A DNA stretch of 24,000 nt, taken from contig QCLZ01000003.1 in NCBI GenBank assembly GCA_003214175.1, forward strand, positions 1-24,000, given 5' to 3'. Under the pieces are notes generated by a model. The model saw only the letters and a program-made list of their open reading frames with translations. It had not been told where the DNA came from and ran no database searches. The position numbers and the translations under genes are program-made. Shown here in pieces: positions 1,366 through 23,746 of the stretch (the stretch's first letter is position 1; every line of letters starts with the position of its first letter). The stretch is from Prochlorococcus sp. AG-418-I20. Lineage in GTDB: Bacteria; Cyanobacteriota; Cyanobacteriia; PCC-6307; Cyanobiaceae.

Positions 1366-1387
1366 GATCGCCCGAGGATCGCCCGCA
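1366..1387. repeat. segment-private tandem repeat GATCGCCCGAG|GATCGCCCGCA
   Basis: 11-bp period with a GC-rich core. The same GATCGCCC tandem recurs at 3247-3268 at the other end of this segment. Confidence 0.8.
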
Positions 1388-1390
1388 AGC

Positions 1391-1417
1391 GAGCTAGTGC
1401 TCTATGGTCACTAGGTC
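1391..1417. other. symmetric att-core-like site GAGCTAGTGC-TCTATGG-TCACTAGGTC
   Basis: Two 10-bp inverted arms flank a 7-bp spacer. The left arm equals the tRNA fragment core GACCTAGTGC with 1 mismatch. Confidence 0.65.
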
Positions 1418-1440
1418 TTATTAATCCATATTTGATTTTG

Positions 1441-1475
1441 TGAACAGTCGATCTGAATTAGAGGTTTACTCCTCT
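1441..1475 (+). promoter_or_regulatory. island leader element copy P2 (variant TGAACAGTCGATC + TGAATT + hairpin AGAGG/CCTCT)
   Basis: Same architecture as the other copies. An ATG at 1476 abuts the stem and opens a 34-codon ORF that overlaps the convergent gene end. Confidence 0.5.
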
Positions 1476-1563
1476 ATGTTTTATCGACTATCAATCATAA
1501 TTAATTTAGCGGTGCACGAATTAAGCGTTTCATATATTCAGAATAAATGGTTGTTTTTTGGAT

Positions 1564-1953
1564 CTAGTGCCAATTATTAATTGCACAAATAGCTTTGAGG
1601 TGCTTCTTAGTTCTCCAAAGACAATGAACCAATCTGCCACTTGGATTTTGGTATGGTTTTAGTCCTTGGTGCAATCCATTTTTAATTCGTTCTAAGTAAA
1701 AAGATGACCTTTCTTTTTGATAAGGATAAACAGTAAGACTTTTGACTAATCCTTTATTACTAGGATCTATTTCCACATCACATGCTCCTAAAATTTCCCA
1801 TTTAATACCCTCTCCAAGTCCACCTACTCCATATTGATTTGATGTCATTTGAAGACATGTAGTTTCTATAGGTTTTGAGAAATCAACTGGGTGAGCAACA
1901 ACAGGTACTAAAAATTGAGAAATGATATGGCTTAGAAATAAGAAGCGTTTCAT
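1564..1953 (-). CDS. secreted hypothetical protein, 129 aa
   Basis: ATG start. The N-terminus MKRFLFLSHIISQFLVPVVAHP is signal-peptide-like, and the 5' nucleotides ATGAAACGCTT are shared with the secreted-protein family. Confidence 0.7.
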   Translation of the reverse strand: MKRFLFLSHIISQFLVPVVAHPVDFSKPIETTCLQMTSNQYGVGGLGEGIKWEILGACDVEIDPSNKGLVKSLTVYPYQKERSSFYLERIKNGLHQGLKPYQNPSGRLVHCLWRTKKHLKAICAINNWH

Positions 1954-2037
1954 TTGATATTCAAATCTTTAGATATTGATTATCATTTTGATACGTTTTG
2001 CATTCAATATTCCGAATTGTCAGCTTAAGTAAAATTA

Positions 2038-2802
2038 ATGGAAATTCTATTTTTAATTATTTGTTTTATTTTTCTTTTTATCCTAGCTGCATTCTCTGAG
2101 GATATGGGATTCTGGGTAGGCACAAAGCAGGTAGCTTTAGAAGAAAACATTAAAAAAAATATTAAAAATATTCTAAAAAATAATAAAGAAAATTCTAGAA
2201 AATCTTATAGAAATCAAAAAAGATTAGTAGGAAACATAAGGAATATTGAAGAGTTAGACGAAATTATGTTTGAGACTGCAAAAAGATTTGCAAGTAGTTT
2301 AGAGGTTAGTAATCAAGATATTCCTTTACTTGGAAATGCTCTAGGGATTGGATATCTACTAAATACCTATTTCACTTTTTTTATTAGAAGTAAAGTTTTT
2401 CCGGAAGATATTTCTCTGGCAGAGGATTTCTACTCAAAAGATAGAGACTTAGTAATGGGTATATCAACTTTTTTTTTAATAGCTAAAAAGAATTATAAAA
2501 AATCTGGATCAACTCTCGCTTTAGGGGTTGAGGGTCTAAAACATGTTTCTTTTTTGATGCATAAGTGCTCAAAGAAAAATCTTGAAGATAGACTTTGCGA
2601 TAAATCTGAGATAATTCCTTTGAAAGAATTATTCAGAGCTTATTCAAGCGAATATGAAAAAGGTGTTGAGACATTAAAGGCAACATATAAAATGATTGAT
2701 ATCAATAGTGAATATGAAAGATACTCAGATGATTTCAACAAATTGCTTTTAGATTTGAAATTATTCGTATTTGATAGTCCATATGATCAAACTAATTATT
2801 AA
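2038..2802 (+). CDS. hypothetical protein with N-terminal TM anchor, 254 aa
   Basis: Long ATG ORF with a hydrophobic N-terminus (ILFLIICFIFLFILAAF). No domain recognised. Confidence 0.7.
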   Translation: MEILFLIICFIFLFILAAFSEDMGFWVGTKQVALEENIKKNIKNILKNNKENSRKSYRNQKRLVGNIRNIEELDEIMFETAKRFASSLEVSNQDIPLLGNALGIGYLLNTYFTFFIRSKVFPEDISLAEDFYSKDRDLVMGISTFFLIAKKNYKKSGSTLALGVEGLKHVSFLMHKCSKKNLEDRLCDKSEIIPLKELFRAYSSEYEKGVETLKATYKMIDINSEYERYSDDFNKLLLDLKLFVFDSPYDQTNY

Positions 2803-2831
2803 ATAAACTAGATATAAAATACTTAGAGGAT

Positions 2832-3068
2832 TTAGCTCCAAAGAGATGAAAAGCCAATCACAATAATCGCAATTTGCAAAACCCCAGCAGATAAAGCCAG
2901 AAGTTTATTACCTCCATCAATCCCATTCTTTTCAACATCACCTCTGACCATTTCAGTAACGAACCAACTAACTATTACAAGTAATATAAATCCACCTAAT
3001 TGACTATCACCCCAGTATTTATATATACCCACTAGAGCAAAAATTCCTGAAAAAAATCCTGTCCCCAT
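2832..3068 (-). CDS. small multi-pass membrane protein, 78 aa
   Basis: ATG ORF with about three hydrophobic stretches. Confidence 0.6.
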   Translation of the reverse strand: MGTGFFSGIFALVGIYKYWGDSQLGGFILLVIVSWFVTEMVRGDVEKNGIDGGNKLLALSAGVLQIAIIVIGFSSLWS

Positions 3069-3246
3069 TTATTAAGTAATCAACTTTAAACTTTTAATTA
3101 ATTTATAGCGATATTGGCATTATTGGTAATGCCTGCAATATAAGTTATTGTCCTCTCAAATAAATAAAATGTTTACTACTTGCACAATCCAATCTTTGAT
3201 AGAAGAGGGCGATGCACCATGCAAAGCTATGCAAGGTATTGCAAAT

Positions 3247-3268
3247 GATCGCCCAGAGATCGCCCAGA
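3247..3268. repeat. segment-private tandem repeat GATCGCCCAGA x2
   Basis: Perfect 11-bp tandem. It is the partner of 1366-1387, and the upstream CAAAG..TATGCAA context is also shared. Confidence 0.8.
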
Positions 3269-3295
3269 GAGTATTTAAGAATCGTGAGAAGTCAA

Positions 3296-3340
3296 TCGGG
3301 GCGACAGGATTCGAACCTGCGACCTAGTGCTCCCAAAGCA
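3296..3340 (-). repeat. partial tRNA-Pro(UGG) 3' segment, copy b
   Basis: TCGGGGCGACAGGATTCGAACCTGCGACCTAGTGCTCCCAAAGCA. Confidence 0.9.
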
Positions 3341-3467
3341 TTCGATCTATTATTTGAGATTATAAAACAAAACTAAGCTATGACTAGGTTATAACCAAGA
3401 GAGTAGAACGAGTTTGAGTCTCAATATTGTACAAAGTTATAGTTCTATATACAAAATATATAACCTC

Positions 3468-3490
3468 AGCTCCTCCTTTAGCTCCCCCGG
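3468..3490. repeat. segment-private tandem repeat AGCTCCTCCTT-T-AGCTCCCCCGG
   Basis: The partner ACTCCCCCTAC|AGCTCCCCTTT lies at 7644-7665 at the other end of the segment. Confidence 0.7.
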
Positions 3491-3493
3491 AGT

Positions 3494-3520
3494 GACCTAG
3501 TGCCTCATGTTAACTAGGTC
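3494..3520. other. symmetric att-core-like site GACCTAGTGC-CTCATGT-TAACTAGGTC
   Basis: 10-bp inverted arms flank a 7-bp spacer, located 4 nt after the tandem repeat. Confidence 0.7.
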
Positions 3521-3554
3521 GAAGAAATGATGTTTTTAACTCTGGACCATACAC

Positions 3555-3710
3555 TTAAATTGAAGAACAAAAGTGATGAAATCTTTGATCATCAACGTCA
3601 GCCATTAAATCATATTCCTCTAATTTTTTTGTAATCCTTTTATATTCAATATCATTTACAAAATGAGCTATATATTTTTCTAAAAAATTTATATTGATTT
3701 TTTGTTTCAT
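3555..3710 (-). CDS. hypothetical 51-aa protein
   Basis: Hand-found ATG..TAA ORF (MKQKININFLEKYIAHFVNDIEYKRITKKLEEYDLMADVDDQRFHHFCSSI) with no homology evidence. Confidence 0.35.
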   Translation of the reverse strand: MKQKININFLEKYIAHFVNDIEYKRITKKLEEYDLMADVDDQRFHHFCSSI

Positions 3711-3925
3711 TAATATCCTTTATTTATTAATAGCTATAAATTCTCTTTTTAACTTTTATTGAATAATTGTTCCTTATAAATTGAGAAAATCTAAAAAAGT
3801 CTAATAAGTACAGCTTATAGAGGGTATGAGAGTAAGTAATTATACTCACACTTATGCTTTTCAGTCATTAGATTTGTTTCAAGATTGCATTAGGAAGCGT
3901 CTTAGCTAAATAGCCAACCAAACAA

Positions 3926-4060
3926 ATGAACGAAACAAAAACAGTTGAGAAGGAAAAAATCGTAGCTGAGAAGCTCAACGGTAGATTTGCGATGATTGGG
4001 TTTATTGCCCTTATAGGTGCATATCTAACAACAGGACAAATTATTCCAGGGTTTGTATAA
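3926..4060 (+). CDS. hli: high-light-inducible protein (HLIP, one-helix CAB/ELIP/HLIP family), 44 aa
   Basis: Translation MNETKTVEKEKIVAEKLNGRFAMIGFIALIGAYLTTGQIIPGFV carries the HLIP signature E-x-x-NGR-x-AM-x-GF and a TGQIIPG tail. Confidence 0.9.
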   Translation: MNETKTVEKEKIVAEKLNGRFAMIGFIALIGAYLTTGQIIPGFV

Positions 4061-4168
4061 ATGGATTTTTCATCTAAAAGACAAGGTTATGTACCCCTTA
4101 AGATGGTTCCTTACATATTCTTTGTTGCAGTTGTTTTAAGCATCACAACAACAAATACATTCGTATAG
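4061..4168 (+). CDS. 35-aa TM peptide immediately after hli
   Basis: Its ATG abuts the hli stop codon. Sequence MDFSSKRQGYVPLKMVPYIFFVAVVLSITTTNTFV, followed by a terminator. Confidence 0.4.
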   Translation: MDFSSKRQGYVPLKMVPYIFFVAVVLSITTTNTFV

Positions 4169-4193
4169 TTTTTAAAAACTTGCATTGTCATGA

Positions 4194-4227
4194 AAGTCAG
4201 CTGGTAGGGATACAGGCTGACTTTTTT
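4194..4227 (+). terminator. rho-independent terminator of the hli operon
   Basis: Stem AAGTCAGC / GCTGACTT with a 14-nt loop, followed by a T-run. Confidence 0.7.
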
Positions 4228-4328
4228 AATGGTAGTTGAGCAATTGACTTGGGAGAATCAAATTAAAACCAATAATTAAAAAATAGAGAATATTAAATTA
4301 AATCTTTACTTTTTGAACCGCTATCAAC

Positions 4329-4469
4329 TTATTCCAAATCAGTATCAAATTCAGGTCTAAACTTAGTAAGTTTAGAAATTTCTAATTTTAGTTCCTCTTC
4401 GGAATTAAATCCTAGTTCTCTGTAGGATTCTAGACCTAGTGAGGCTTCTCTTTTTAAAATTATTTTCAT
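4329..4469 (-). CDS. hypothetical acidic 46-aa protein
   Basis: Hand-found ATG..TAA ORF (MKIILKREASLGLESYRELGFNSEEELKLEISKLTKFRPEFDTDLE). Confidence 0.35.
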   Translation of the reverse strand: MKIILKREASLGLESYRELGFNSEEELKLEISKLTKFRPEFDTDLE

Positions 4470-4604
4470 ATCCCATAAGTTTCTAAATTAATACTAGTTT
4501 TTAATAATTTAATTAAGTTACTAAGTTGTTGATTCAAGACCGTTTGACCAATTTATTAATTGACAATCTATTTACAATGTATAAATGAACCCCTTCTTTT
4601 ATTT

Positions 4605-4736
4605 ATGAAAGAAACAGGATTTAACTTAACTCAAGGAATTGCTTTGCTACTTTTGAAAACATTAAACTTGCCTGTTAATTACGTTCTAAATTTAATAATT
4701 TACATAACTAACCCTAGAAATAATATTGGTTATTAA
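4605..4736 (+). CDS. hypothetical 43-aa peptide
   Basis: ATG ORF downstream of TTGACA(4560)-N-TATAAA, a diverged relative of the leader element. Confidence 0.3.
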   Translation: MKETGFNLTQGIALLLLKTLNLPVNYVLNLIIYITNPRNNIGY

Positions 4737-4764
4737 TTATGCCTCTCGAAGTGAAAAAAATTAA

Positions 4765-5058
4765 ATGAAGGTTCTCGAAGATATCGCATCCGATTTAGAA
4801 CAAAGAATTACTGATGCTTCCATAGGTAATTCTTCTAGGCCAACTATCTTATTCTGTGGCTGCGACCCTCGACTTAAAAAGGATTTGCATAAACGTGCAA
4901 AGCGTATTGGCTTTAATCCATCTTACTCAATAAAACATCCATCTATTAAAGTGGAATTGCAGAATTTTGGGAATAGAAAAATAGAAAGAGATAGGTTTAA
5001 GACAATAACTATGGACTATGAAAACTTTGAATTTATTTGTAGGTATCTAGAGAGTTAA
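4765..5058 (+). CDS. hypothetical protein, 97 aa
   Basis: ATG ORF with balanced composition. No motif recognised. Confidence 0.6.
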   Translation: MKVLEDIASDLEQRITDASIGNSSRPTILFCGCDPRLKKDLHKRAKRIGFNPSYSIKHPSIKVELQNFGNRKIERDRFKTITMDYENFEFICRYLES

Positions 5059-5285
5059 GCATCTTTCAAAGATCTATTTTTGTTCTTGTGTTATTGTTAA
5101 TAAATCTCAGGTAGAGATAAGACTAAGCAATATTGACCAGCTAAAGAATTTTTGAAAAAGAATCCCACCTGCAAGAGTCAAATACTTTCTGATAAACAAA
5201 TTGTGTTGATCTATCCCATAGAGCGAATGCAAAGAATAAAAATCACTTATTAAGCCTGTGTATATAAAACTAAAAAAGTAAACTA

Positions 5286-5420
5286 ATGAAAAAACTAAAC
5301 AAAAAATATGCTGAATTAATGCGCAAGGCTCAACAAGCTACTGGAAGAAAAGAGGCAGTTGGATTAATCCATAAAGCAGCAAAGTTAAAAACCAAATTTG
5401 ATCAATACGAGATGATGTAA
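5286..5420 (+). CDS. hypothetical basic helical 44-aa protein
   Basis: Hand-found ATG..TAA ORF (MKKLNKKYAELMRKAQQATGRKEAVGLIHKAAKLKTKFDQYEMM), 26 nt upstream of the DUF1330 gene. Confidence 0.4.
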   Translation: MKKLNKKYAELMRKAQQATGRKEAVGLIHKAAKLKTKFDQYEMM

Positions 5421-5446
5421 TCTAATTGAAACACTAATATAAATAA

Positions 5447-5788
5447 ATGGATAAAAAAGGGGCTAAAGGTTACTGGATATCAACGGCGAAAATAATTAAT
5501 CAGGACTTATTTGATGAATATGTAAATAAAGTTGGTCCATGGCTGAAAGAGTTTGGAGGTCAAGTTTTTGCAAAAGATACAGAGCCTCAAGGAAAGGAAA
5601 GGACTGAGGATGCCAATTTAGCCGTTATTTGTGAATTCCCATCAATGAGGGCTGCCGTTGAAGCTTATGAATCTGAAGAATATAAAGAGCTTTCAAAGCT
5701 AAGAAAAGAAGCAACTGAAAATTCCACGTTTACAGTTATGGAAGGTTTAGATGAAGCTACAAAACTTAGAAGAGCAATGGGTTTGTAA
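5447..5788 (+). CDS. DUF1330 family protein, 113 aa
   Basis: KGYWI start, FGG, EG, V-x-EFPS, and A-x-x-x-Y-x-S-x-EY spacing are typical of DUF1330. Confidence 0.8.
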   Translation: MDKKGAKGYWISTAKIINQDLFDEYVNKVGPWLKEFGGQVFAKDTEPQGKERTEDANLAVICEFPSMRAAVEAYESEEYKELSKLRKEATENSTFTVMEGLDEATKLRRAMGL

Positions 5789-5919
5789 TATATATGTAAG
5801 TTTTTCTACTCGTTACATAGCGAATAAAGAGTTAGAGTATGAACAATGGAAGCATTTGATTGGAGATAACTTCACTAGTCCAAAGCAACTATTTATACCT
5901 TCACAAAAAAATTAAAGAA

Positions 5920-6207
5920 ATGACTATTTTTATTGGAAATTTATCTTGGGAAACTGAGGTTGAAGATCTTGAACAACTTTTTAGTAATTATGGAGTAGTA
6001 AAGAAATGTTATTTACCTCTTGATAGAGAAACAGGAAGAAAAAGAGGTATTGCTTTTGTAGATTTAAATGATCATAATTCTGAAAAAAAAGCTATTGATG
6101 ATCTTCAAGATGTTGAATGGATGGGAAGAGAGATAAGGGTCAACGAGGCTGAGAAAAGGGACAGACCCAATAATAAAAAATACAATAAATTTAATAGAAA
6201 TAATTAG
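5920..6207 (+). CDS. RRM-type RNA-binding protein, 95 aa
   Basis: RNP2 IFIGNL and RNP1 KRGIAFVDL are present. I moved the start to the ATG at 5920, because the ORF-track TTG at 5860 adds an implausible extension. Confidence 0.9.
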   Translation: MTIFIGNLSWETEVEDLEQLFSNYGVVKKCYLPLDRETGRKRGIAFVDLNDHNSEKKAIDDLQDVEWMGREIRVNEAEKRDRPNNKKYNKFNRNN

Positions 6208-6257
6208 TTTTTATTACTTTGCGATTCTGAAGATTATCAGTATAAATCAAAAGAAAA

Positions 6258-6512
6258 TTAGAGCTTGCTTATTCGTAACTTATATCCAAAATTCATCAAT
6301 TGATTATAAGTCGATTTTATTTGTAAAGAGTTAAGAGAAAGACGTTTCTCCTTATTCTTTTGTAAATAAAAAAAACCTTTGTCATCTAAATTCTTTTCAA
6401 TAGAAACAAATTCTTTCCCTTTTTCTAGAATCCAAGGTTCTAATTGGAAATTATCATCTCCTATTTGATAATCCCATGGATAAATATCATTGGTTTGATT
6501 CTTTAGAGACAT
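6258..6512 (-). CDS. hypothetical protein, 84 aa
   Basis: ATG ORF with no motif. Confidence 0.55.
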   Translation of the reverse strand: MSLKNQTNDIYPWDYQIGDDNFQLEPWILEKGKEFVSIEKNLDDKGFFYLQKNKEKRLSLNSLQIKSTYNQLMNFGYKLRISKL

Positions 6513-6639
6513 ATTGAATACCTTATCTTAGTAAAAGTATCCTAATACTTTGTGATGGATTTTTTGTGTAACTAGAGAGACTGTTATATGTATATGTTGC
6601 TTTTTGAATCCTTCACATATTTGTTTTTATAGGCAAAAA

Positions 6640-6763: not shown

Positions 6764-6765
6764 AA

Positions 6766-6827
6766 AGAGCTGGGTGATGGGGATTATCAAGCTTTTTTAT
6801 TTAGGGCGAATCTAACGCCCTTTTTTT
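6766..6827 (+). ncRNA. candidate small RNA 2 (motif GAGCTGGGTGATGGGG) ending in a strong terminator
   Basis: The motif from candidate 1 is repeated. Terminator AGGGCG-aatctaa-CGCCCT plus T7 lies at 6803-6827. Confidence 0.35.
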
Positions 6828-7643: not shown

Positions 7644-7665
7644 ACTCCCCCTACAGCTCCCCTTT
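7644..7665. repeat. segment-private tandem repeat ACTCCCCCTAC|AGCTCCCCTTT
   Basis: Partner of 3468-3490. It is followed by the palindrome CTCAATTTGAG and the tRNA-flank terminator. Confidence 0.7.
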
Positions 7666-7688: not shown

Positions 7689-7713
7689 AAAAAAGCGAGT
7701 TGGGAGACTCGCT
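7689..7713 (-). terminator. terminator travelling with the tRNA-Pro fragment
   Basis: On the minus strand, directly 3' of fragment c, the stem AGCGAGT/ACTCGCT is followed by a T-run. Confidence 0.65.
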
Positions 7714-7735: not shown

Positions 7736-7787
7736 TCGGGGCGACAGGATTCGAACCTGCGACCTAGTGCCCCCAAATCACTAGTTC
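7736..7787 (-). repeat. partial tRNA-Pro 3' segment, copy c (variant, fully symmetric core)
   Basis: TCGGGGCGACAGGATTCGAACCTGCGACCTAGTGC-CCCCAAA-TCACTAGTTC. The loop is altered and the right arm is extended into a 10-bp inverted repeat. Confidence 0.85.
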
Positions 7788-7881: not shown

Positions 7882-7903
7882 TTTTCCCTAAATTTTCCCT
7901 AAA
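7882..7903. repeat. segment-private tandem repeat TTTTCCCTAAA x2
   Basis: Perfect 11-bp tandem. Partner TTTTCCCTGA|TTTTTCCCTAA lies at 8505-8525. Confidence 0.8.
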
Positions 7904-7906: not shown

Positions 7907-7933
7907 GATCTAGTGCTCCACAAGGTTCTAGGA
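7907..7933. other. degenerate att-core-like site GATCTAGTGC-TCCACAA-GGTTCTAGGA
   Basis: The left arm matches the core 9/10. In the right arm only the CTAG centre is conserved. Confidence 0.4.
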
Positions 7934-8041
7934 GTTGCCACAAACAAATAAAAATGGTGAATGTAGAAAGCCTTTAATTTATTCTTTTTTTTTAGTTTTA
8001 TTTGGGATAAATGTTGCTTGTTCAACGTAATGTGAGATCTA

Positions 8042-8504: not shown

Positions 8505-8525
8505 TTTTCCCTGATTTTTCCCTAA
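8505..8525. repeat. segment-private tandem repeat TTTTCCCTGA|TTTTTCCCTAA
   Basis: Partner of 7882-7903. An inverted copy TAGGGAAAAA lies at 8465-8474. Confidence 0.75.
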
Positions 8526-8554: not shown

Positions 8555-8590
8555 TCGAGGATACATGATTCGAACCTGCGACCTAGTGCT
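8555..8590 (-). repeat. degenerate partial tRNA-Pro 3' segment, copy j
   Basis: TCGAGGATACATGATTCGAACCTGCGACCTAGTGCT. The T-arm and core are retained, the acceptor part has decayed, and the anticodon loop is replaced by TTTTATT. Confidence 0.7.
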
Positions 8591-10662: not shown

Positions 10663-10684
10663 ATTTGTTGGCTATTTGTTGGCC
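10663..10684. repeat. tandem repeat ATTTGTTGGCT|ATTTGTTGGCC
   Basis: 11-bp tandem in the same position relative to the tRNA flank as the others. An inverted copy GCCAACAAG lies at 10692-10700. I found no partner at the left end of this segment. Confidence 0.7.
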
Positions 10685-10709
10685 GCTATGAGCCAACAAG
10701 CAAAAGCAA

Positions 10710-10736
10710 TAAAAAAGCGAGTCTGGGTAACTCGCT
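10710..10736 (-). terminator. terminator travelling with the tRNA-Pro fragment
   Basis: On the minus strand 3' of fragment d, the stem AGCGAG/CTCGCT is followed by a T-run. Confidence 0.6.
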
Positions 10737-10758: not shown

Positions 10759-10805
10759 TCGGGGCGACAGTATTCGAACCTGCGACCTAGTGCTCCCAAA
10801 GCACT
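10759..10805 (-). repeat. partial tRNA-Pro(UGG) 3' segment, copy d
   Basis: TCGGGGCGACAGTATTCGAACCTGCGACCTAGTGCTCCCAAAGCACT, with one substitution in the T-arm. Confidence 0.9.
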
Positions 10806-10893
10806 TAATAGCCGTAGTTCAGCACTAGGTTTTAAAGCTATATCTAATTATTTGCTTGGTTCTGCGAAGTTTGTCGTGACAAATAAAGTAATA

Positions 10894-10915
10894 TTTGTCC
10901 GCAATTTGTCCGCAA
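10894..10915. repeat. segment-private tandem repeat TTTGTCCGCAA x2
   Basis: Perfect 11-bp tandem. The identical tandem recurs at 13330-13351 at the other end of the segment. A partial third copy TTTGTCGTGAC lies at 10870. Confidence 0.85.
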
Positions 10916-13329: not shown

Positions 13330-13351
13330 TTTGTCCGCAATTTGTCCGCAA
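13330..13351. repeat. segment-private tandem repeat TTTGTCCGCAA x2
   Basis: Identical to 10894-10915. It sits just before the terminator-like flank of fragment e. Confidence 0.85.
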
Positions 13352-13422
13352 TCATTGAGGACAGAATTTAAGCAATAAAAAAGACAGGCTGGGAAACCTT
13401 TCTATGACTTGGATTATTAGAG

Positions 13423-13469
13423 TCGGGGCGACAGGATTCGAACCTGCGACCTAGTGCTCCCAAAGCACT
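13423..13469 (-). repeat. partial tRNA-Pro(UGG) 3' segment, copy e
   Basis: TCGGGGCGACAGGATTCGAACCTGCGACCTAGTGCTCCCAAAGCACT. Confidence 0.9.
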
Positions 13470-13556: not shown

Positions 13557-13578
13557 ATTTGTCGGCGATTTGTCGGCG
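13557..13578. repeat. segment-private tandem repeat ATTTGTCGGCG x2
   Basis: Perfect 11-bp tandem. Partner TTTGTCGGCT|TTTTGTCGGCT lies at 15357-15377. Confidence 0.85.
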
Positions 13579-13691
13579 ATTTGAAAGTAATTTTCGGTTA
13601 ATTTAAATTTTAGAACCAATTAAAAGATATTTAATTGACATCGCATTCATATTTGTAAAATATGGATTTATACCGATAGGCAAAAAAGAGA

Positions 13692-15356: not shown

Positions 15357-15377
15357 TTTGTCGGCTTTTTGTCGGCT
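15357..15377. repeat. segment-private tandem repeat TTTGTCGGCT|TTTTGTCGGCT
   Basis: Partner of 13557-13578. Confidence 0.8.
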
Positions 15378-15449: not shown

Positions 15450-15499
15450 TAGGGGCGACAGGATTCGAACCTGCGACCTAGTGCTCCCAAAGCACCCGC
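15450..15499 (-). repeat. partial tRNA-Pro(UGG) 3' segment, copy f (long form)
   Basis: TAGGGGCGACAGGATTCGAACCTGCGACCTAGTGCTCCCAAAGCACCCGC. Identity extends through the whole anticodon stem. Confidence 0.9.
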
Positions 15500-15623
15500 T
15501 ACGCAAAATGCGACAGCCCCCATGAGAAACAAGTGAGGCTATGGCTTATTAGTTGATATTAAATGAAAATTGATGAGTCTTAAAAATTAGCAAGATATAG
15601 CAAGGTGGTGCATAAATAAGCAA

Positions 15624-15645
15624 AATCTCGCTCAAATCTCGCTCA
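15624..15645. repeat. tandem repeat AATCTCGCTCA x2
   Basis: Perfect 11-bp tandem, 5 nt before the symmetric core. No identical partner was found. Confidence 0.75.
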
Positions 15646-15650: not shown

Positions 15651-15677
15651 GACCTAGTGCCCTAAGAGCACTAGCTC
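15651..15677. other. symmetric att-core-like site GACCTAGTGC-CCTAAGA-GCACTAGCTC
   Basis: 10-bp inverted arms (1 mismatch) flank a 7-bp spacer. Confidence 0.7.
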
Positions 15678-18446: not shown

Positions 18447-18488
18447 AACAAATTAAACGCATAATACTTGCCCCGCTATATTAATTAC

Positions 18489-18533
18489 GATTGACAGTCG
18501 ATCTAATATAGAGGGATCAAACCCTCTTTTTTT
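18489..18533 (+). promoter_or_regulatory. island leader element copy P8 (GATTGACAGTCGATC + TAATAT + AGAGGG-atcaaa-CCCTCT + T-run)
   Basis: Canonical copy. The ATG at 18534 abuts the T-run. Confidence 0.75.
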
Positions 18534-18893
18534 ATGCGTAAATCATTAGTAACTTTATTAGCTGCATTTACTTTACCCACTGCTGTTAATGCCTCTGTTC
18601 CTTTCCTTTATGTAAATGGTGGAACCATGGGCGATTATGAAAGTGTGAATGAATGCTTAAACATAGCAATGAGAGAAATGAAAATGGCAGGATTTACAAA
18701 AATTGTTAAATCTGGTCTTGACAAAAAAAACAAAAAACAGGCTACTATTATTGCCGATCATTCATGGAGACCAGCCACAATAACTTATAGATGTTTTGAA
18801 GATCTAAAGGTATATTCGTGGGGAGTTTCAGCAATAGTTAATGATGATGCTTACGAAACTTATATTGATATGAATAATGCCTTTGGTAAATGA
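18534..18893 (+). CDS. secreted hypothetical protein, 119 aa
   Basis: Signal peptide MRKSLVTLLAAFTLPTAVNA|SV. Confidence 0.7.
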   Translation: MRKSLVTLLAAFTLPTAVNASVPFLYVNGGTMGDYESVNECLNIAMREMKMAGFTKIVKSGLDKKNKKQATIIADHSWRPATITYRCFEDLKVYSWGVSAIVNDDAYETYIDMNNAFGK

Positions 18894-19264
18894 AACGCTT
18901 ACTAATCCCACTACTAGCTGCCCTCGCTTTACCTACGGCTGTTAATGCTGAAACTTGGGTACAAGCAGCAAGTTTGATGCATGATGATGCTAAACCAGGC
19001 ACACTGGGATATTTTTTATGTAAGGAAAATAATGATTGTGGAATGGGATTGTTTGTTGATGTCAAATCTATAGTTAAAAGAGGTGATTTTGTTTACTTCA
19101 ATTTCGATACAAAACCTTTAAACAAATATGCTGTTCCAAAAGATAGAGAATTTGAAGCTGTAGGGTGGACTGCTGATTGCAAAAAAAAACTATTGGGACC
19201 AAATTTAAAAATGAGGCCGGCTTCAGAAAGGGAAATAAAGTTATTAAAACTTGTTTGTGATTAA
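18890..19264 (+). CDS. secreted hypothetical protein, 124 aa
   Basis: The ATG overlaps the upstream stop codon (ATGA). Signal peptide MKRLLIPLLAALALPTAVNA|ET. Confidence 0.7.
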   Translation: MKRLLIPLLAALALPTAVNAETWVQAASLMHDDAKPGTLGYFLCKENNDCGMGLFVDVKSIVKRGDFVYFNFDTKPLNKYAVPKDREFEAVGWTADCKKKLLGPNLKMRPASEREIKLLKLVCD

Positions 19265-19316
19265 GATTATTTAGTGAAAAAATAATGATATTCCCTGCGA
19301 TAAAGCCACTAGTAAA

Positions 19317-19349
19317 ATGAAACGCTTACTTACACCTCTTGAATTATGA
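19317..19349 (+). pseudogene. truncated signal-peptide remnant (MKRLLTPLEL*)
   Basis: The first 15 nt, ATGAAACGCTTACTT, follow the family 5' end. The frame stops after 10 codons. Confidence 0.45.
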
Positions 19350-19438
19350 ATAACGATTTTTAAAAAGGATTCTTAACTGGTTCAGGTGGATTATTAGGAG
19401 TTCTATCCATACCAGTTGGGATTTATCTCATATATTTT

Positions 19439-19672
19439 TTGATTAAGCTCTTATTCGTCCCAACAACAAACTTGTTATTAAGAAAAACGGAATATTTGAA
19501 TTGGAAAGATTGCCTTAAGGAGACACAAGCAGAAAGAAGTTACCAACCTATTAAAAGGGGGTATAGAGATAATAATATCTCTGCAGTTGTTCAACTACAA
19601 AAGGAGTATTGCGGGAGAAGACCAAATGAATGGAAGTGGCAATTAGAGACATACTACAAACCATCAAAATAA
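19439..19672 (+). CDS. hypothetical protein, 77 aa, possibly 5'-truncated
   Basis: TTG start. The frame stays open upstream through a TM-like stretch (GSGGLLGVLSIPVGIYLIYF) without any start codon. Confidence 0.35.
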   Translation: MIKLLFVPTTNLLLRKTEYLNWKDCLKETQAERSYQPIKRGYRDNNISAVVQLQKEYCGRRPNEWKWQLETYYKPSK

Positions 19673-19760
19673 TGGAATTGGGAATAGGTTCTTTTTAGAC
19701 AATTTAATGTGGGTCATCTGAAAGCACGATCATTTTGGAAGAATACTATTAGATGGTATT

Positions 19761-19808
19761 TAGCGATTAAGCCTACTAGGTATATCAAAGCTATACAAAT
19801 AATCGCTA
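19761..19808 (+). repeat. 48-bp perfect direct repeat, copy 1 (flanks the protease cassette)
   Basis: TAGCGATTAAGCCTACTAGGTATATCAAAGCTATACAAATAATCGCTA, identical to 20825-20872. Confidence 0.9.
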
Positions 19809-19822
19809 AATAATAGCTAGAG
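19801..19822. repeat. segment-private tandem repeat AATCGCTAAAT|AATAGCTAGAG
   Basis: Partner of 20865-20886. It is followed by the half-core GACCTAGTGT at 19826-19835. Confidence 0.65.
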
Positions 19823-19933
19823 GTAGACCTAGTGTCTTTAATGGGGTTTTATGTAATTTATGACTTAGTAAAAATGAAAACTATAATTTGATAATATTTT
19901 AAAAAACGAACTAAACTAACTAAAGCTTTTATC

Positions 19934-20827
19934 TTGGTTTTGAAAATCAAAAACTATCTAATATTTTTTTCTCTGATTGGTTTACTTTTGACGTTTAAAA
20001 TTAATTATTTTGGAAAAAATTCAATTTATTTTATGCCTAAAGAGTATAAAACTATAAAAAAATTAGTGGATAAAATAGCATCTAAAAATTACTTGGGCGA
20101 TAAAGAAATCCCTTTTTTTATTGGAAGTGGAAGGTATATGGAAATAAGGGCAAAAGAATTAGGTTTATGTGAAGAGGATGATTGCTGGTATTACAATAAT
20201 TTAAGTCCATATAAGAATTATAAAAATGTTGAGGGAATAAATCTTAATGAGCTTATAAAACAATCATATTTGTTCAATGGAATTGAAGCCTATGCTTGGA
20301 GAGGGATAGTTTGGTTAAGTCAATCTACTTTTCGAACTTATGGAAAAGATAAAAAATTTCTAAACTGTACTATTGGTCATGAATTATCTCATGTGATTTT
20401 TGATGATCATATTGAGCAGAGTATTAAACTATCAAATTCTTTAAAAGAAATAGAGAATCAAAATAAAAAAGATTCAAGCAGTAAAACACAAAAAGAAGTA
20501 AAAGAAAATATAAGACTAAAATTAAGTAGAGAATCTGAAAAGATAGCTGATATTAATGCCGCAAAAATGATTATTAATGCAGGATATCCTAAAGAAACTT
20601 GTATAGATGAATTAATCTTCCTCACTCAATCATCAAAGTTAGATGCTGATACTGAAACTGATTCAACTCATCCAGGTTTTATTGAGCGCATTGCCTCACT
20701 TGAAGAATTCATAGATAAATATGATCTAAATAAAGAGATTACAGAATTTAAGCCTTACAAGTGGACATGGAGTTATGACAGTACCTCTAAATTATTAAAG
20801 TTTAAACCTGAACCTAGCGATAACTAG
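19934..20827 (+). CDS. HExxH zinc metallopeptidase, M48-like, 297 aa
   Basis: N-terminal TM helix, GHELSH, and a downstream ESEKIADINAAKMI motif (E-x-x-AD with third-ligand spacing) as in M48 peptidases. The start codon is TTG. Confidence 0.7.
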   Translation: MVLKIKNYLIFFSLIGLLLTFKINYFGKNSIYFMPKEYKTIKKLVDKIASKNYLGDKEIPFFIGSGRYMEIRAKELGLCEEDDCWYYNNLSPYKNYKNVEGINLNELIKQSYLFNGIEAYAWRGIVWLSQSTFRTYGKDKKFLNCTIGHELSHVIFDDHIEQSIKLSNSLKEIENQNKKDSSSKTQKEVKENIRLKLSRESEKIADINAAKMIINAGYPKETCIDELIFLTQSSKLDADTETDSTHPGFIERIASLEEFIDKYDLNKEITEFKPYKWTWSYDSTSKLLKFKPEPSDN

Positions 20828-20872
20828 CGATTAAGCCTACTAGGTATATCAAAGCTATACAAATAATCGCTA
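20825..20872 (+). repeat. 48-bp perfect direct repeat, copy 2
   Basis: Identical to 19761-19808. It begins at the stop codon of the protease gene. Confidence 0.9.
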
Positions 20873-20886
20873 TTTAATCGCTATTT
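20865..20886. repeat. segment-private tandem repeat AATCGCTATTT x2
   Basis: Perfect 11-bp tandem and partner of 19801-19822. It is followed by the tRNA flank and fragment g. Confidence 0.8.
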
Positions 20887-20958
20887 GAGTTTTTAAGACA
20901 AATGAGAAATAAAAAAGGCAACCTTGGGATGGCTTCCTATGACTTGGTTTTGATTGAG

Positions 20959-21008
20959 TCGGGGCGACAGGATTCGAACCTGCGACCTAGTGCTCCCAAA
21001 GCACCCGC
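20959..21008 (-). repeat. partial tRNA-Pro(UGG) 3' segment, copy g (long form)
   Basis: TCGGGGCGACAGGATTCGAACCTGCGACCTAGTGCTCCCAAAGCACCCGC. Confidence 0.9.
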
Positions 21009-21092
21009 AAGATTAAAACTATAATTGAGACTTAAAGCTTTATCAGGCTTTTAGAGAAAAAAGTTTGGACTTATTCGGACTTATATGTTCGA

Positions 21093-21113
21093 TTTTGGGC
21101 ACTTTTTGGGCAC
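21093..21113. repeat. segment-private tandem repeat TTTTGGGCAC|TTTTTGGGCAC
   Basis: Partner TATGGGCAC|TTTTTGGGCAC lies at 22351-22370. A second tandem TTTGGACTTAT|TCGGACTTAT lies at 21064-21084. Confidence 0.8.
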
Positions 21114-21133
21114 ATAATTTAAGAAGTTATTAA

Positions 21134-21175
21134 TTGACAGTCGATCAAAAATAAGGGGCAATTCGCTCCTTTTTT
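21134..21175 (+). promoter_or_regulatory. island leader element copy P9 (TTGACAGTCGATC + AAAAAT + AGGGGC-aattc-GCTCCT + T-run)
   Basis: Both arms of the hairpin differ from consensus but still pair. It faces the 3' end of the convergent gene 21209-21586. Confidence 0.6.
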
Positions 21176-21208
21176 GGTGAATAGATTTTTAATTTAAGTG
21201 AATATGGG

Positions 21209-21586
21209 TTATTTCCATAAAGAAAGTCCCAAACGAATATATGGCTTAAGCTGCCAACCCCAAAAACCAAAACCAAATACTAAGAATTGAGGAAATATAC
21301 GAATTATCAATAAAATAATGCCACCTCTTCCTCTTGCTTTTGAAGAAATATTACTTATTTCATTTGAATCAAATATTGGAGGTTCATAAGTGCCCCATAA
21401 ATGGAAACCTTGCAAAACCATTATCAAACAAGAAAAGGCACCGATAATTGAGATTAATAATAGAGCTTTAGCTTTTATAGATCCTTTTTTTATAGATCCT
21501 TTTTCCATTTCTGGATCAAAAGCTCCGCAAACAATTAAAGATAGAAACCCTATTAGAGCAAACCATGCTGCAGTTGATCCGTTCAT
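21209..21586 (-). CDS. multi-pass membrane protein, 125 aa
   Basis: ATG ORF with several TM helices. It contains an in-frame 15-bp tandem duplication (KKGSI KKGSI). Confidence 0.6.
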   Translation of the reverse strand: MNGSTAAWFALIGFLSLIVCGAFDPEMEKGSIKKGSIKAKALLLISIIGAFSCLIMVLQGFHLWGTYEPPIFDSNEISNISSKARGRGGIILLIIRIFPQFLVFGFGFWGWQLKPYIRLGLSLWK

Positions 21587-21673
21587 GAATTAAGAAATAG
21601 TTATTAAGTAAAATAATCCCAATAAAGAATTTCAAATCTATAAATTTATAAATTAAGATAATTTATTTTTCAC

Positions 21674-22258
21674 TTATAAATTAATGTTATTTCTTTCCTT
21701 TTCTAACATTTTTATTAGGTATTCATATGCTTCATTAACTAGCTTAAATTCCTCTTCTGCATTTTTATCATTTTTATTTAGATCAGGATGCCATTGTCTA
21801 GCTTCTTTGCGATAAGCCTTCTTAAGCTCAGATTCATCAAAATCTTCTGAAAGATCAAAGAAGGAAATATAATCTAAATCTTCAAGACTTCTTTGCGGCC
21901 TATTTCTAATTTTATCTTGTTCATCCTTTTTCTCTTTAACCTCCTTTTTTTTAAATTTACTTTCATCTACAACATAATTTTCTTTTATAGTGATTTTTAG
22001 TTTTTTTATTGATTCTCTTAATTTTATATTCTCATAACCAACAAAAAATATTACGCCTACAAGTAAAAATTGCCCAAATTGAAGGATTGGATCTAATCTC
22101 CATCCTTGATAAAAAAGAATTAAACCGCATACCCAAAAAATTGGAACAAGAAATGGGTCATATTTAGTAGATATTGATTTCTTAAAGAAAGGAACAAAAC
22201 CAGCCAATATCAAGGCGATACCGACTATGCTGGCCCAATTTAATGAAGCGTTAAACAT
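21674..22258 (-). CDS. membrane-anchored J-domain (DnaJ-like) protein, 194 aa
   Basis: N-terminal TM helices. The C-terminal J domain reads [38 protein letters not shown] and carries the HPD motif. Confidence 0.85.
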
Positions 22259-22350
22259 ATATATATAACCCTCTAGAGAATAAGTTAAAAGTTATTTAAT
22301 TAAGGATAAATATAGAACTTATAGAAATCAATATTTTGAAAATAAATTAT

Positions 22351-22370
22351 TATGGGCACTTTTTGGGCAC
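22351..22370. repeat. segment-private tandem repeat TATGGGCAC|TTTTTGGGCAC
   Basis: Partner of 21093-21113. Confidence 0.8.
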
Positions 22371-22422
22371 TCTACTCTTTAGGTTAAATATATTATTGGC
22401 TGAGACTTACTGCTATAACTGA

Positions 22423-22472
22423 TCGGGGCGACAGGATTCGAACCTGCGACCTAGTGCTCCCAAAGCACCCGC
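22423..22472 (-). repeat. partial tRNA-Pro(UGG) 3' segment, copy h (long form)
   Basis: TCGGGGCGACAGGATTCGAACCTGCGACCTAGTGCTCCCAAAGCACCCGC. The left flank GAGACTTACTGCTATAACTGA is shared with copy a. Confidence 0.9.
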
Positions 22473-22596
22473 CCTCCAATTTGAGACAGTTACCTAAATA
22501 AACAAGTCAGGCTATTGCATGTTAGTTGCAATATCAGAGGAGTTGTGAGTCTCAAAAAGAGGTCAAAGGTATACAAAATTATCCATAAATATACAA

Positions 22597-22618
22597 TTCC
22601 TCGCCCGTTTGTCGCCCG
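22597..22618. repeat. segment-private tandem repeat TTCCTCGCCCG|TTTGTCGCCCG
   Basis: Partner ATCCTCGCCC|ATTCCTCGCCC lies at 23494-23514. It is followed by the half-core GACCTAGTAC at 22624-22633. Confidence 0.75.
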
Positions 22619-22659
22619 CCTCCGACCTAGTACTTTTATTCAAAGAGTAGAATATTATT

Positions 22660-22695
22660 GATTGACAGTCGATCTAAAATAAGAGAAAACAATAT
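22660..22695 (+). promoter_or_regulatory. island leader element copy P10 (GATTGACAGTCGATC + TAAAAT, no hairpin)
   Basis: The palindrome and TANNNT box are intact and the hairpin is absent. The ATG at 22696 lies 15 nt after the box. Confidence 0.65.
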
Positions 22696-22860
22696 ATGTT
22701 TAATCCTGATTACAAAGTTAACCCAAACGCAAAAGAGGAATTTACAGCTAAACTTTTCGATATGATTAGAGCTTATGAAGAGGATATACCTAGACTTGAG
22801 ATAGCAAAGGCACTACGTAATTTCGCAAAAATGTTGGAAAAAATAGAGGAAGGGAATTGA
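22696..22860 (+). CDS. hypothetical helical protein, 54 aa
   Basis: Hand-found ATG..TGA ORF (MFNPDYKVNPNAKEEFTAKLFDMIRAYEEDIPRLEIAKALRNFAKMLEKIEEGN), directly downstream of P10. Confidence 0.5.
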   Translation: MFNPDYKVNPNAKEEFTAKLFDMIRAYEEDIPRLEIAKALRNFAKMLEKIEEGN

Positions 22861-23087
22861 CTTTTTATCCTAAATTATCTAAAAACCTTACTCCAAAGGA
22901 TTTAAAACTTTTTTTTAAAAGTATATTTTTTCTAATATCAATAATATCAATAATATCTATTGGTATTGGAACAATATTTTTTATATATTTAAATGTTCAA
23001 TGCGAAGAAGTTTTTTTAAGAGGTCAAAATACTTTCATTTGTGGAGAGGATAGAGAAAAATTAAAAAAGAATAATTACAACTTTTAA
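22857..23087 (+). CDS. single-TM protein, 76 aa (TTG start overlapping upstream stop)
   Basis: TTGA start/stop overlap with 22696-22860. TM helix FFLISIISIISIGIGTIFFIY. Confidence 0.45.
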   Translation: MTFYPKLSKNLTPKDLKLFFKSIFFLISIISIISIGIGTIFFIYLNVQCEEVFLRGQNTFICGEDREKLKKNNYNF

Positions 23088-23118
23088 TGTATGTTTTTTA
23101 TAAGTTTAAAAAGCTAAC

Positions 23119-23289
23119 CTATTTAATAAATAGAGGTGTCATGAAAAAAGATATGATTCCAGTCGATATAAAGTAAGCGTTATTAAATTCCTTTTTACAT
23201 CCGCAATCTTTAAAGAGGAGAACACCTTGAATTGCTCCAATAATATAAACAACAATAAAGCTTATAACCCAAGCAGACAAACTATTCAT
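23119..23289 (-). CDS. two-TM peptide, 56 aa
   Basis: Hand-found ATG..TAG ORF (MNSLSAWVISFIVVYIIGAIQGVLLFKDCGCKKEFNNAYFISTGIISFFMTPLFIK). Confidence 0.4.
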   Translation of the reverse strand: MNSLSAWVISFIVVYIIGAIQGVLLFKDCGCKKEFNNAYFISTGIISFFMTPLFIK

Positions 23290-23493
23290 AATTAATACTA
23301 TTTATTTATTAAATAATAAATAAATATTAAACGTTAGCAAATAAAATTTTCTCAAGATTCACTTCTAAATGTCGAAAAAAACTGTTTACAAATAAACAAA
23401 AGATTATTGCAGTAATCTTAAATGCTTTTGAAATTGCAATAATTAGCCTTTTTTCGGGCGACAGACCCTCCAAAGTTATCCAAAGATATACAA

Positions 23494-23514
23494 ATCCTCG
23501 CCCATTCCTCGCCC
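23494..23514. repeat. segment-private tandem repeat ATCCTCGCCC|ATTCCTCGCCC
   Basis: Partner of 22597-22618. It is preceded by the shared CAAAGTTATCCAAAGATATACAA context. Confidence 0.75.
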
Positions 23515-23541
23515 GCAGAGATTTTAAGACAAATGAGAAAT

Positions 23542-23566
23542 AAAAAAGCGAGTTGGGAGACTCGCT
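23542..23566 (-). terminator. terminator travelling with the tRNA-Pro fragment
   Basis: On the minus strand 3' of fragment i, a perfect stem AGCGAGT/ACTCGCT is followed by a T-run. Confidence 0.65.
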
Positions 23567-23589
23567 ACTATGACTTGGTTTTTAAATGG

Positions 23590-23639
23590 TCGGGGCGACA
23601 GGATTCGAACCTGCGACCTAGTGCTCCCAAAGCACCCGC
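23590..23639 (-). repeat. partial tRNA-Pro(UGG) 3' segment, copy i (long form)
   Basis: TCGGGGCGACAGGATTCGAACCTGCGACCTAGTGCTCCCAAAGCACCCGC. Both flanks are homologous to those of copy g. Confidence 0.9.
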
Positions 23640-23724
23640 AAGAATAAGACTATAACTGAGACTTATAGCCATAACAGTACTTTTCAGGAATAAAGTATGG
23701 ACTAAAGTGGACTAGTTTCGATTC

Positions 23725-23746
23725 ATTTGAGGGAATTTTGAGGGAA
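23725..23746. repeat. tandem repeat ATTTGAGGGAA|TTTTGAGGGAA
   Basis: Occupies the same position after fragment i as 21093-21113 does after fragment g. Its partner would lie beyond the window end. Confidence 0.7.

Follow-up and report, generated by a model that had tools for sequence, protein, structure and literature searches.

Paired tandem 11-mers around tRNA-Pro fragments in a Prochlorococcus island are probable arm-type sites of tyrosine integrases

Our analysis of a 24-kb stretch of AT-rich DNA (31% GC) from Prochlorococcus sp. AG-418-I20 (contig QCLZ01000003.1, positions 1-24,000; hereafter the window) indicated that the tandem repeats of 11 nucleotides (nt) beside its tRNA fragments are, in all likelihood short of certainty, the P and P′ arm-type sites of heterobivalent tyrosine integrases, which would belong to a lineage of tycheposons and temperate cyanophages targeting the 3′ half of tRNA-Pro(UGG). 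The segments between the fragments (cassettes) carry the same repeat at both ends; the repeats surround a single fragment in unintegrated, phage-like contigs (the attP form), recur as motif families across genera and covary with the N-terminal module of the adjacent integrase. By analogy with lambda-type recombination, the arms may govern the choice of recombination partner. Tycheposons (Hackl et al., bioRxiv 10.1101/2020.12.28.424599) are found in Prochlorococcus islands located beside tRNA genes; stacked elements are separated by partial copies of the tRNA, their tyrosine recombinase is lineage-specific, and they have been linked to phage-like particles.

Pattern matching located nine near-identical 44-nt copies of the tRNA 3′ half on the minus strand of the window and one hybrid copy at 8557 (Table 1). 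The intact gene in related genomes is tRNA-Pro(UGG), that is, tRNA-Pro(tgg) in L050, L061 and L216 (L-numbers denote other loci fetched for comparison, and P-numbers denote integrase proteins from such loci), and no intact tRNA was detected in the window by ARAGORN. When tandems were defined by an exact period of 11 and a run of at least nine matching bases, the window contained 13, compared with a mean of 0.3 and a maximum of 2 in block shuffles, and every other period between 7 and 15 yielded 0 to 4 comparable tandems. All 13 were situated in junction zones adjoining the tRNA fragments, at fixed offsets from the ten fragments. An earlier note on this DNA had described the unit as a 10-12-mer made of a T-tract and a GC-rich core; its length is 11 nt, extending to 12 nt in certain families of other loci, and it comprises an 8-9-nt specific core and a variable T/A-rich filler. 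The eight tandem pairs proposed in that note were all recovered at, or within a few bases of, the places it gave, with pairs 2, 6 and 8 consisting of imperfect copies, and three further tandems (10663, 15623 and 23726) had escaped it. The fixed position beside fragments that it had described holds for the offsets, with the exception of the left copy of pair 6 (19801), which is not preceded by a tRNA fragment.

The longest substring common to the zone right of one fragment and the zone left of the next was 9, 8, 13, 22, 10, 18 and 12 nt, against a background of mostly 5-9 nt; pairs 1 and 2 (9 and 8 nt) overlap this background and therefore rest on the position and reading of the repeat, not on the substring measure. 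Among 61 complete cassettes, taken from Prochlorococcus-type loci and from the window itself, 45 had at least 10 nt common to both ends, whereas the same was true of 10.5% of random pairs. As had been proposed earlier, the repeats match across the cargo and not across the tRNA fragment. The density of GC-containing period-11/12 tandems was 2.07 per kb inside the att zones and 0.066 per kb in the rest of the same loci, a 32-fold difference, and about half of the tandems outside the att zones were recognisable arm motifs. A chance origin of the paired tandems, which the earlier note had proposed to judge by background density and by shuffling, was rejected on both counts.

Each segment end has a constant anatomy. 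At the left end, the fragment is followed by a 100-140-nt spacer, the two tandem copies (P′ arm) and, in many cases, a core-like palindrome termed core2. The right end consists, in order, of one or two inverted copies of the motif, caaag.tat.caaa boxes in one class, the two tandem copies (P arm), a variable spacer, a hairpin and the tRNA 3′ half. Around the invariant 44-nt tRNA identity block, the tandems lie at -53 to -100 and +97 to +143, and the arm sequences, which fall outside the identity segment, are unrelated to core-type sequence. The hairpin carries a T-run on the tRNA strand, and the changes in its stem are compensatory in the family alignment; on these features, it is the predicted replacement terminator of the tRNA. 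The left arms of one class start with a diverged tRNA-Pro 5′ half, so that their attP would hold a whole pseudo-tRNA.

Scanning for the fragment retrieved at least 119 loci from genomes of Prochlorococcus, marine Synechococcus and freshwater Cyanobium, as well as 21 loci from viral contigs. Genes for a large terminase and a minor tail protein mark the viral contigs as temperate-phage-like, and an integrase gene is present as well. Tandems were present on both sides of the fragment in 15 of the 21, and in 12 of these 15 (L016 included) the same tandem flanked a single fragment, about 55-76 nt to its left and about 100 nt to its right; the right copy was imperfect in L021, and L011 showed the right side only. 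In the matched contigs, an open reading frame (ORF) of about 400 amino acids (aa) starts directly after the right copy. The motifs of the free contigs vary (CTAGATTAC, CTAGGATAC, ATGTGCGCTTG, ATGTGCGAA, TTGTGTAG, TTGTGTACA, TTTTGAGCAG and TTATGCGCTT), with P and P′ motifs agreeing across the fragment in L003-L020. The order of tandem, flank, tRNA core, spacer and same tandem had been predicted in the earlier note for the junction of an excised circle, and it is found here in unintegrated phage-like contigs with the integrase in cis. In integrated GC-rich loci, the left and right tandems of a fragment are mismatched, as in the window, and in none of the fetched loci did an integrase-less cassette show an attP-type junction, in which one motif would flank the fragment left and right.

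The ORF of about 400 aa encodes a tyrosine recombinase, with a sub-threshold Pfam match to PF00589 (Phage_integrase), a weak match to XisAC_2nd and R..HxxR..H..Y positions that are invariant in the integrases. In the AlphaFold model of P0005 (predicted local distance difference test score, 87), the body (residues ~95-424) matches Tn1549 Int, Cre, IntI and XerH, and it is preceded by an extra ordered N-terminal domain (residues 1-88; a helix at 5-21, three strands within 27-53 and helices at 59-74 and 79-86) and a disordered linker (89-93). When this domain alone was compared with the PDB for a fold like that of the known arm-binding domains (lambda Int and Tn916 Int), no significant match was obtained. 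The first ~58 residues of the integrases (N-module) follow the repeat sequence independently of the protein body. The integrases of L105 and P0006, both with ATTTGTCCACT, agree at 85% in the N-module and 65% in the body, whereas L105 and P0002 (ATTTGTCCACT versus ATTTGTCGGCG) agree at 24% and 87%, and L105 and P0001 (ATTTGTCCACT versus ATTTGTCCATA) at 80% (with ERR changed to KAN) and 95%, all of these comparisons being made within one Prochlorococcus integrase lineage; for L105 and P0004 (ATTTGTCCACT versus ATTTGACGGAA), the values were 21% and 88%. In the phage integrases, the identity of the N-domain was 0.86-1.0 for the same motif and 0.58-0.67 for different motifs, the latter with a body identity of 0.89-0.91 (L005 versus L018-L020; L013 versus L016). 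A distant Synechococcus-type integrase (L261; TTTGTCCGCGA) had an N-module 35-37% identical to TTTGTCC-type modules and 20-26% to others, with a body at 38-39% to all compared integrases. This covariation points to the N-terminal module as the probable seat of arm specificity and lends weight to the likeness to lambda-type arm sites that the earlier note had remarked on.

Several points weigh against this reading. The assignment of the N-module as the reader of the tandem rests on covariation, from which physical binding is presumed. No more than ~30 nt separate the P′ tandem from the integrase 5′ end, so that part of the covariation could reflect physical linkage during mosaic exchange. The tandem might alternatively be read by the product of a small co-inherited ORF, a probable excisionase gene that overlaps the integrase gene at its end (L278 and L282 each have a 63-aa ORF across the integrase stop codon). 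Of the ~11 window motifs, only two could be assigned a cognate integrase: P0002 (L281) directly follows two copies of the cassette 5 motif TTTGTCGGCGA, and in L237 and L261 an integrase comes after two copies of TTTGTCCGC(A/G)A, the cassette 4 motif. The distal P arm, however, changes in concert within a conserved backbone, which argues against linkage alone and for function; the backbone around the motifs looked conserved, by eye, between contigs with different motifs.

In the free element, the attP comprises an optional inverted copy, the tandem ×2, 55-100 nt including the replacement terminator, the tRNA 3′ half, a 100-140-nt spacer, the same tandem ×2 and the integrase gene. We propose that crossover occurs at the anticodon loop within the tRNA 3′-half core, that integration leaves P′ at one end of the element and, at the opposite end, P along with a new tRNA 3′ half, and that serial integration at the regenerated tRNA stacks elements one after another. 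Such stacking would give each segment the same motif at both ends and leave the two sides of any fragment different. Differences between motifs would arise from exchangeable N-modules of ~58 residues, which have different arm specificities, on integrases that have one core specificity in common. Lambda-type integrases bridge core and arm sites, and since all cores of the array are identical, cognate arms would, on this precedent, limit synapsis to the two ends of one unit. The eight cassettes of the window have no integrase, which they either lost or never had, but retain complete attL and attR.

It is unlikely, in our estimation, that the tandems are instead sites of another element protein, such as an excisionase (recombination directionality factor) or a replication initiator, that were merely co-inherited with the integrase N-terminus. 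Both Xis sites (lambda X1-X2) and iterons typically consist of direct repeats in tandem with a spacing of one helical turn, the tight association of the P′ tandem with the integrase 5′ end and the 63-aa ORF at the integrase stop in L278 and L282 would fit co-inheritance, and replication modules are present in tycheposons (bioRxiv 10.1101/2020.12.28.424599). Yet the repeats stand at fixed offsets on both sides of the core, in two copies each plus an inverted copy, they are accompanied by neither an AT-rich unwinding region nor an adjacent rep gene, and in the integrase the motif is tracked by a discrete additional domain with a fold of its own; the non-private caaag.tat.caaa boxes of type-1 arms would be better candidates for Xis or host-factor sites. 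An iteron origin has at least three direct repeats of ~17-22 bp beside an AT-rich region and a rep gene, whereas here there are two 11-nt copies per arm, symmetric around the att cores, and no rep gene, which disfavours the iteron alternative raised in the earlier note.

The motif sequence itself, not just its complementarity, is conserved within families (96.8%) and covaries with a protein module, and this makes it very improbable that direct and inverted copies fold as a single strand and are recognised by shape, as in integron attC, with the sequence free to vary. Such folding would suit the P arms, in which one or two inverted copies of the private motif stand 35-45 nt upstream of the tandem and change in concert with the direct copies (L113 has GACCGCA ×2 direct and ×1 inverted); one inverted plus two direct sites is, however, a common arm-site layout, P′ arms usually have direct copies only, the crossover core is an invariant double-strand tRNA sequence, and the integrase body is as similar to Tn1549 Int and Cre as to IntI. 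We consider it barely credible that the tandems are passive scars of homologous recombination or of copy-paste duplication, the latter also suggested in the earlier note, with no present function. The same paired layout is found in unintegrated phage genomes, and the motif is conserved far better than the neighbouring sequence, covaries with the integrase and is enriched 32-fold over the island background, although recombination between tandems does occur (empty cassettes in L026 and L216; the fused junction at 19741-19836).

At least ~25 recurring motif families with the same architecture were found across Prochlorococcus, Synechococcus and Cyanobium, and most window motifs are among them. 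The CTCGCTC arm family is joined to at least nine unrelated cargos, and the conserved module has an abrupt boundary at the tandem or core2; across 12 P arms of this family that lack an integrase, conservation was 96.8% in the tandem, 62.7% in the adjacent spacer and 37% on the cargo side. Cargo that is 89-97% identical was found to be flanked by arms of different families, and in some instances of different classes. For instance, a 129-aa ORF of the window (1557-1970) is 96.6% identical to one in a metagenome contig (L211, 518-931), where it lies inverted in a cassette with TTTGTCGGC arms. These comparisons indicate that single genes change cassette irrespective of the arms. Cassette 4 and its neighbour recur intact in L042. 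The tandem marks the integrase class, not the cargo. The idea of a private, cassette-specific address that travels with its cargo has to be given up, since the motif families recur in many genomes, one family carries many unrelated cargos, near-identical cargo is found between families, and cognate integrases for at least two window motifs exist elsewhere. As a parallel case, a viral scan with TTTGTCSGCNATTTGTCSGC returned non-cyanobacterial phages only. A TTTGTCCGC(A/T)A tandem also adjoins tRNA 3′ ends and a tyrosine integrase in the unrelated phages L150, L151 and L155 (IMG/VR; GC 36-53%), and two tandem copies flank the tRNA fragment in L155.

An integrase followed 23 of the 97 Prochlorococcus-type fragments with an intact right tandem and all 17 of the Synechococcus/Cyanobium fragments with a right tandem. 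None was found inside the listed complete cassettes, a sample biased towards small units by its 8-kb blocks, and integrase remnants were rare (examples in L222 and L125). The window yielded no integrase ORF, as the earlier note had reported, and no remnant in a tblastn search with 20 integrases (noise only, E ~0.2 or higher). Its cargo has Pfam matches to DUF1330, RRM, PAP_fibrillin, autotransporter, SHOCT, M48 peptidase and DnaJ/Ycf66 and is ordinary island content. A tentative extension, to which we would give well under even weight, is that the integrase-less cassettes form a standing library of non-autonomous units around one common tRNA-Pro core, each addressable by an integrase with a matching N-module, and that incoming tycheposons or temperate cyanophages excise, carry and re-insert them in trans; most island DNA would then be an integron-like system running on arm codes, with core2 as a possible site of cargo swapping.

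The closest parallels among known systems are incomplete. The attP of phage lambda carries the arm-type sites P1, P2 and P′1-3, with equivalents in L5, P2, HP1, Tn916 and CTnDOT. The repeats described here resemble them in being short direct repeats that occur on either arm at distances of tens to >100 bp from the core, with a spacing of about one helical turn, in being unrelated to the core, in being split between attL and attR on integration and in the extra integrase N-terminal domain as the likely reader. They differ in that this domain (alpha-beta3-alpha-alpha, ~88 aa) has no detectable match to solved arm-binding domains, one tRNA-Pro core is served by at least ~25 arm motifs, integrases otherwise 80-95% identical have swapped the N-module as a cassette, and type-1 arms add core2 beside the P′ repeats. 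The lambda and HK022 integrases have common arm sites and different cores, so that arm and core specificities are separable; our system is the mirror image, with a common core and different arms on a much larger scale. Cis-mobilisable elements (CIMEs), as in accretion of the ICESt1/ICESt3 type, are integrase-less, flanked by functional attL and attR and arranged in tandem at one tRNA-type site. The eight window cassettes lack an integrase but have cores and a cognate pair of P′ and P arms. They resemble CIMEs in this layout and would be potentially excisable by the integrase of a neighbouring or incoming element; unlike in CIME arrays, up to ten units stand in a row with many arm specificities. 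The earlier assertion that no described system is of this kind was too strong, because arm-type sites and CIMEs are both known kinds. Integron cassette arrays share small, mostly promoter-poor gene cassettes, each with its own site, and a tyrosine recombinase. Here, in contrast, an invariant tRNA sequence takes the place of the folded attC as the core, the two arms of each cassette contain mainly direct repeats, there is no attI, IntI or Pc platform, and specificity would reside in direct repeats read by the N-terminal domain.

The tycheposon comparison bears most directly on the island itself. Site-specific integration at an island tRNA with partial tRNA copies is common to both, the tycheposon paper listing seven such tRNAs and the window containing ten tRNA-Pro fragments, but the window cassettes carry neither integrase nor replication genes (primase, helicase) and fall outside the definition of the preprint, while relatives elsewhere carry an integrase. 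Most island DNA was interpreted there as flanking material left by imprecise excision (bioRxiv 10.1101/2020.12.28.424599), whereas ~70% of the DNA from the first to the last fragment of the window belongs to units bounded on both sides by cognate arms, and the remainder to units that keep one arm. Arm repeats are not mentioned in the tycheposon preprint (Hackl et al., bioRxiv 10.1101/2020.12.28.424599). What remains new are the arm sites of tycheposon and cyanophage elements, the many arm specificities on a single core and the finding that about three-quarters of the Prochlorococcus-type fragments with intact arms have no adjacent integrase. Our results provide a concrete attP anatomy and a candidate specificity determinant for the integrases of tycheposons and cyanophages, neither of which is in the defining preprint. 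A natural series of integrases with one core, swappable arm-reading modules and at least ~25 motifs of 8-9 nt would be a test bed for arm recognition and a possible source of orthogonal recombination handles. The island can be re-read as a row of discrete units with complete cognate recombination sites, not as amorphous flanking material, and gene gain and loss in it become directly testable by asking whether matching integrases excise these units in trans.

The core2 element (GACCTAGTGC, the same as the core half-site) lies 4-7 nt past the P′ repeats in many families and many loci. Some copies form a complete 10-N7-10 palindrome that has compensatory variants; elsewhere, divergence of the sequence sets in precisely at the would-be exchange point. 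In the integrase-bearing L022, core2 is located past the tandem and before the start of the integrase gene. The hybrid at 8557 implies that a tRNA core recombined with core2 at least once and that one left arm was lost in the process. A second core2 past the mobility module, which could allow the integrase to be deleted precisely, was looked for in L104, L116, L022, L105, L278, L113, L114, L097 and L118 and was not found. The junction at 19741-19836 contains an inverted copy, caaag boxes, a tandem and core2 but has no tRNA fragment. It has the appearance of two AATCGCTA-type units that were joined when their arms recombined, which would explain the mismatched ends of the segment 15496-20960. 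In 'empty' cassettes, a fragment, a spacer, a single tandem and a terminator are followed by the next fragment or the intact tRNA, with no cargo (L026 6475-6663; L216 3788-4016). Together with the fused junction, these show that cargo is lost when the two tandems recombine.

Table 1. Attachment-site features of the window (positions 1-24,000 of QCLZ01000003.1)
Feature	Position	Strand	Basis or remark
tRNA-Pro(UGG) 3′ fragment (att core), 1 mismatch	1192..1235	-	pattern match
P′-arm tandem GATCGCCC ×2, left end of cassette 1	1366..1387	+	family also in L027, L048, L069, L084
core2 palindrome GAGCTAGTGC-N8-CACTAGGTC, 3 nt after P′ tandem	1391..1417	+	
Inverted third copy of GATCGCCC motif, P arm	3207..3213	-	
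P-arm tandem GATCGCCCAGA ×2, right end of cassette 1	3247..3270	+	
tRNA-Pro 3′ fragment (att core)	3298..3341	-	pattern match
P′-arm tandem AGCTCCYC ×2, cassette 2	3468..3490	+	period-12 family (C)TAGCTCCCC in other loci
core2 palindrome	3494..3520	+	
P-arm tandem ACTCCCCC/AGCTCCCC, cassette 2	7644..7665	+	
Element-borne tRNA terminator hairpin (predicted)	7689..7713	-	equivalents start at 10711, 13377, 15402, 20911, 23542
tRNA-Pro 3′ fragment, 2 mismatches	7738..7781	-	pattern match
P′-arm tandem TTTTCCCTAAA ×2, cassette 3	7882..7903	+	also in L136
core2-like site	7907..7934	+	
P-arm tandem TTTTCCCT ×2, cassette 3	8505..8525	+	
Hybrid site: degenerate tRNA T-arm + GACCTAGTGC, joined to sequence after core2 of 22624	8557..8589 (region to 8640)	-	pattern match; comparison with 22624-22680
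P-arm tandem ATTTGTTGGC ×2, right end without partner (left arm lost at 8557 hybrid)	10663..10683	+	
Inverted copy of TTGTTGGC motif	10692..10699	-	
tRNA-Pro 3′ fragment, 1 mismatch	10761..10804	-	pattern match
P′-arm tandem TTTGTCCGCAA ×2, cassette 4	10893..10915	+	integrase-bearing element with same motif in L237/L261
P-arm tandem TTTGTCCGCAA ×2, cassette 4	13330..13352	+	
tRNA-Pro 3′ fragment	13425..13468	-	pattern match
P′-arm tandem TTTGTCGGCGA ×2.5, cassette 5	13557..13583	+	identical tandem directly upstream of integrase P0002, L281
P-arm tandem TTTGTCGGC ×2, cassette 5	15357..15377	+	
tRNA-Pro 3′ fragment; with 15496-15520 scores as whole pseudo-tRNA	15452..15495	-	pattern match; Rfam tRNA 38.6 bits at 15450-15520
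P′-arm tandem AAATCTCGCTC ×2, left end, no matching right end in window	15623..15645	+	family alignment
core2 palindrome GACCTAGTGC-CCTAAGA-GCACTAGCTC	15651..15677	+	
Tandem TAATCGCTA/TAATAGCTA in fused P/P′ junction without tRNA fragment, left end of cassette 6	19801..19822	+	
core2 left half	19826..19836	+	
Two inverted copies (TAGCGAT ×2) of AATCGCTA motif, P arm	20815..20831	-	
P-arm tandem TAATCGCTATT ×2, cassette 6	20864..20886	+	
tRNA-Pro 3′ fragment	20961..21004	-	pattern match
P′-arm tandem TTTTGGGCACT ×2, cassette 7	21093..21113	+	
P-arm tandem (T)ATGGGCAC/TTTTGGGCAC, cassette 7	22351..22370	+	
tRNA-Pro 3′ fragment	22425..22468	-	pattern match
P′-arm tandem TCCTCGCCCG/TTGTCGCCCG, cassette 8	22597..22618	+	
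core2 left half (GACCTAGTAC)	22624..22633	+	
Inverted copy of TCGCCC motif, P arm	23456..23461	-	
P-arm tandem TCCTCGCCC ×2, cassette 8	23494..23514	+	
tRNA-Pro 3′ fragment	23592..23635	-	pattern match
P′-arm tandem TTTGAGGGAAT ×2, left end, partner beyond window	23726..23748	+	

Further repeats were noticed around the fragments. Non-private period-10 repeats (GGACTnnTTCGGACT and TCTTGCGTAC) occur in left arms (window 21066-21085 and 23696-23716; L026, L060 and L087) and, together with the caaag.tat.caaa boxes of type-1 arms, are candidate excisionase or host-factor sites. On the non-island side, a tandem (A)TTTTGTC(A/G)CT(A) in two to four copies lies ~85 nt 5′ of the intact tRNA-Pro (L029, L032, L039 and L099). 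In the fragment at 821 of L058, a 7-nt segment of the anticodon loop is inverted (GACCTAGTGC-TTTGGGA). An element of ~45 nt, TTGACAGTCGATCTAA..(T)AGAGGGATAAAACCCTCT(T)n, recurs at 983, 8619, 8956, 15700, 15996, 17806, 18491, 21134, 22662 and 23791 of the window. No Rfam family matched this promoter-like hairpin element. It is situated directly upstream of the ATG of many small cargo ORFs, often directly after core2, and may be a shared promoter or 5′ untranslated region hairpin that also serves as a homology patch for gene shuffling between cassettes.

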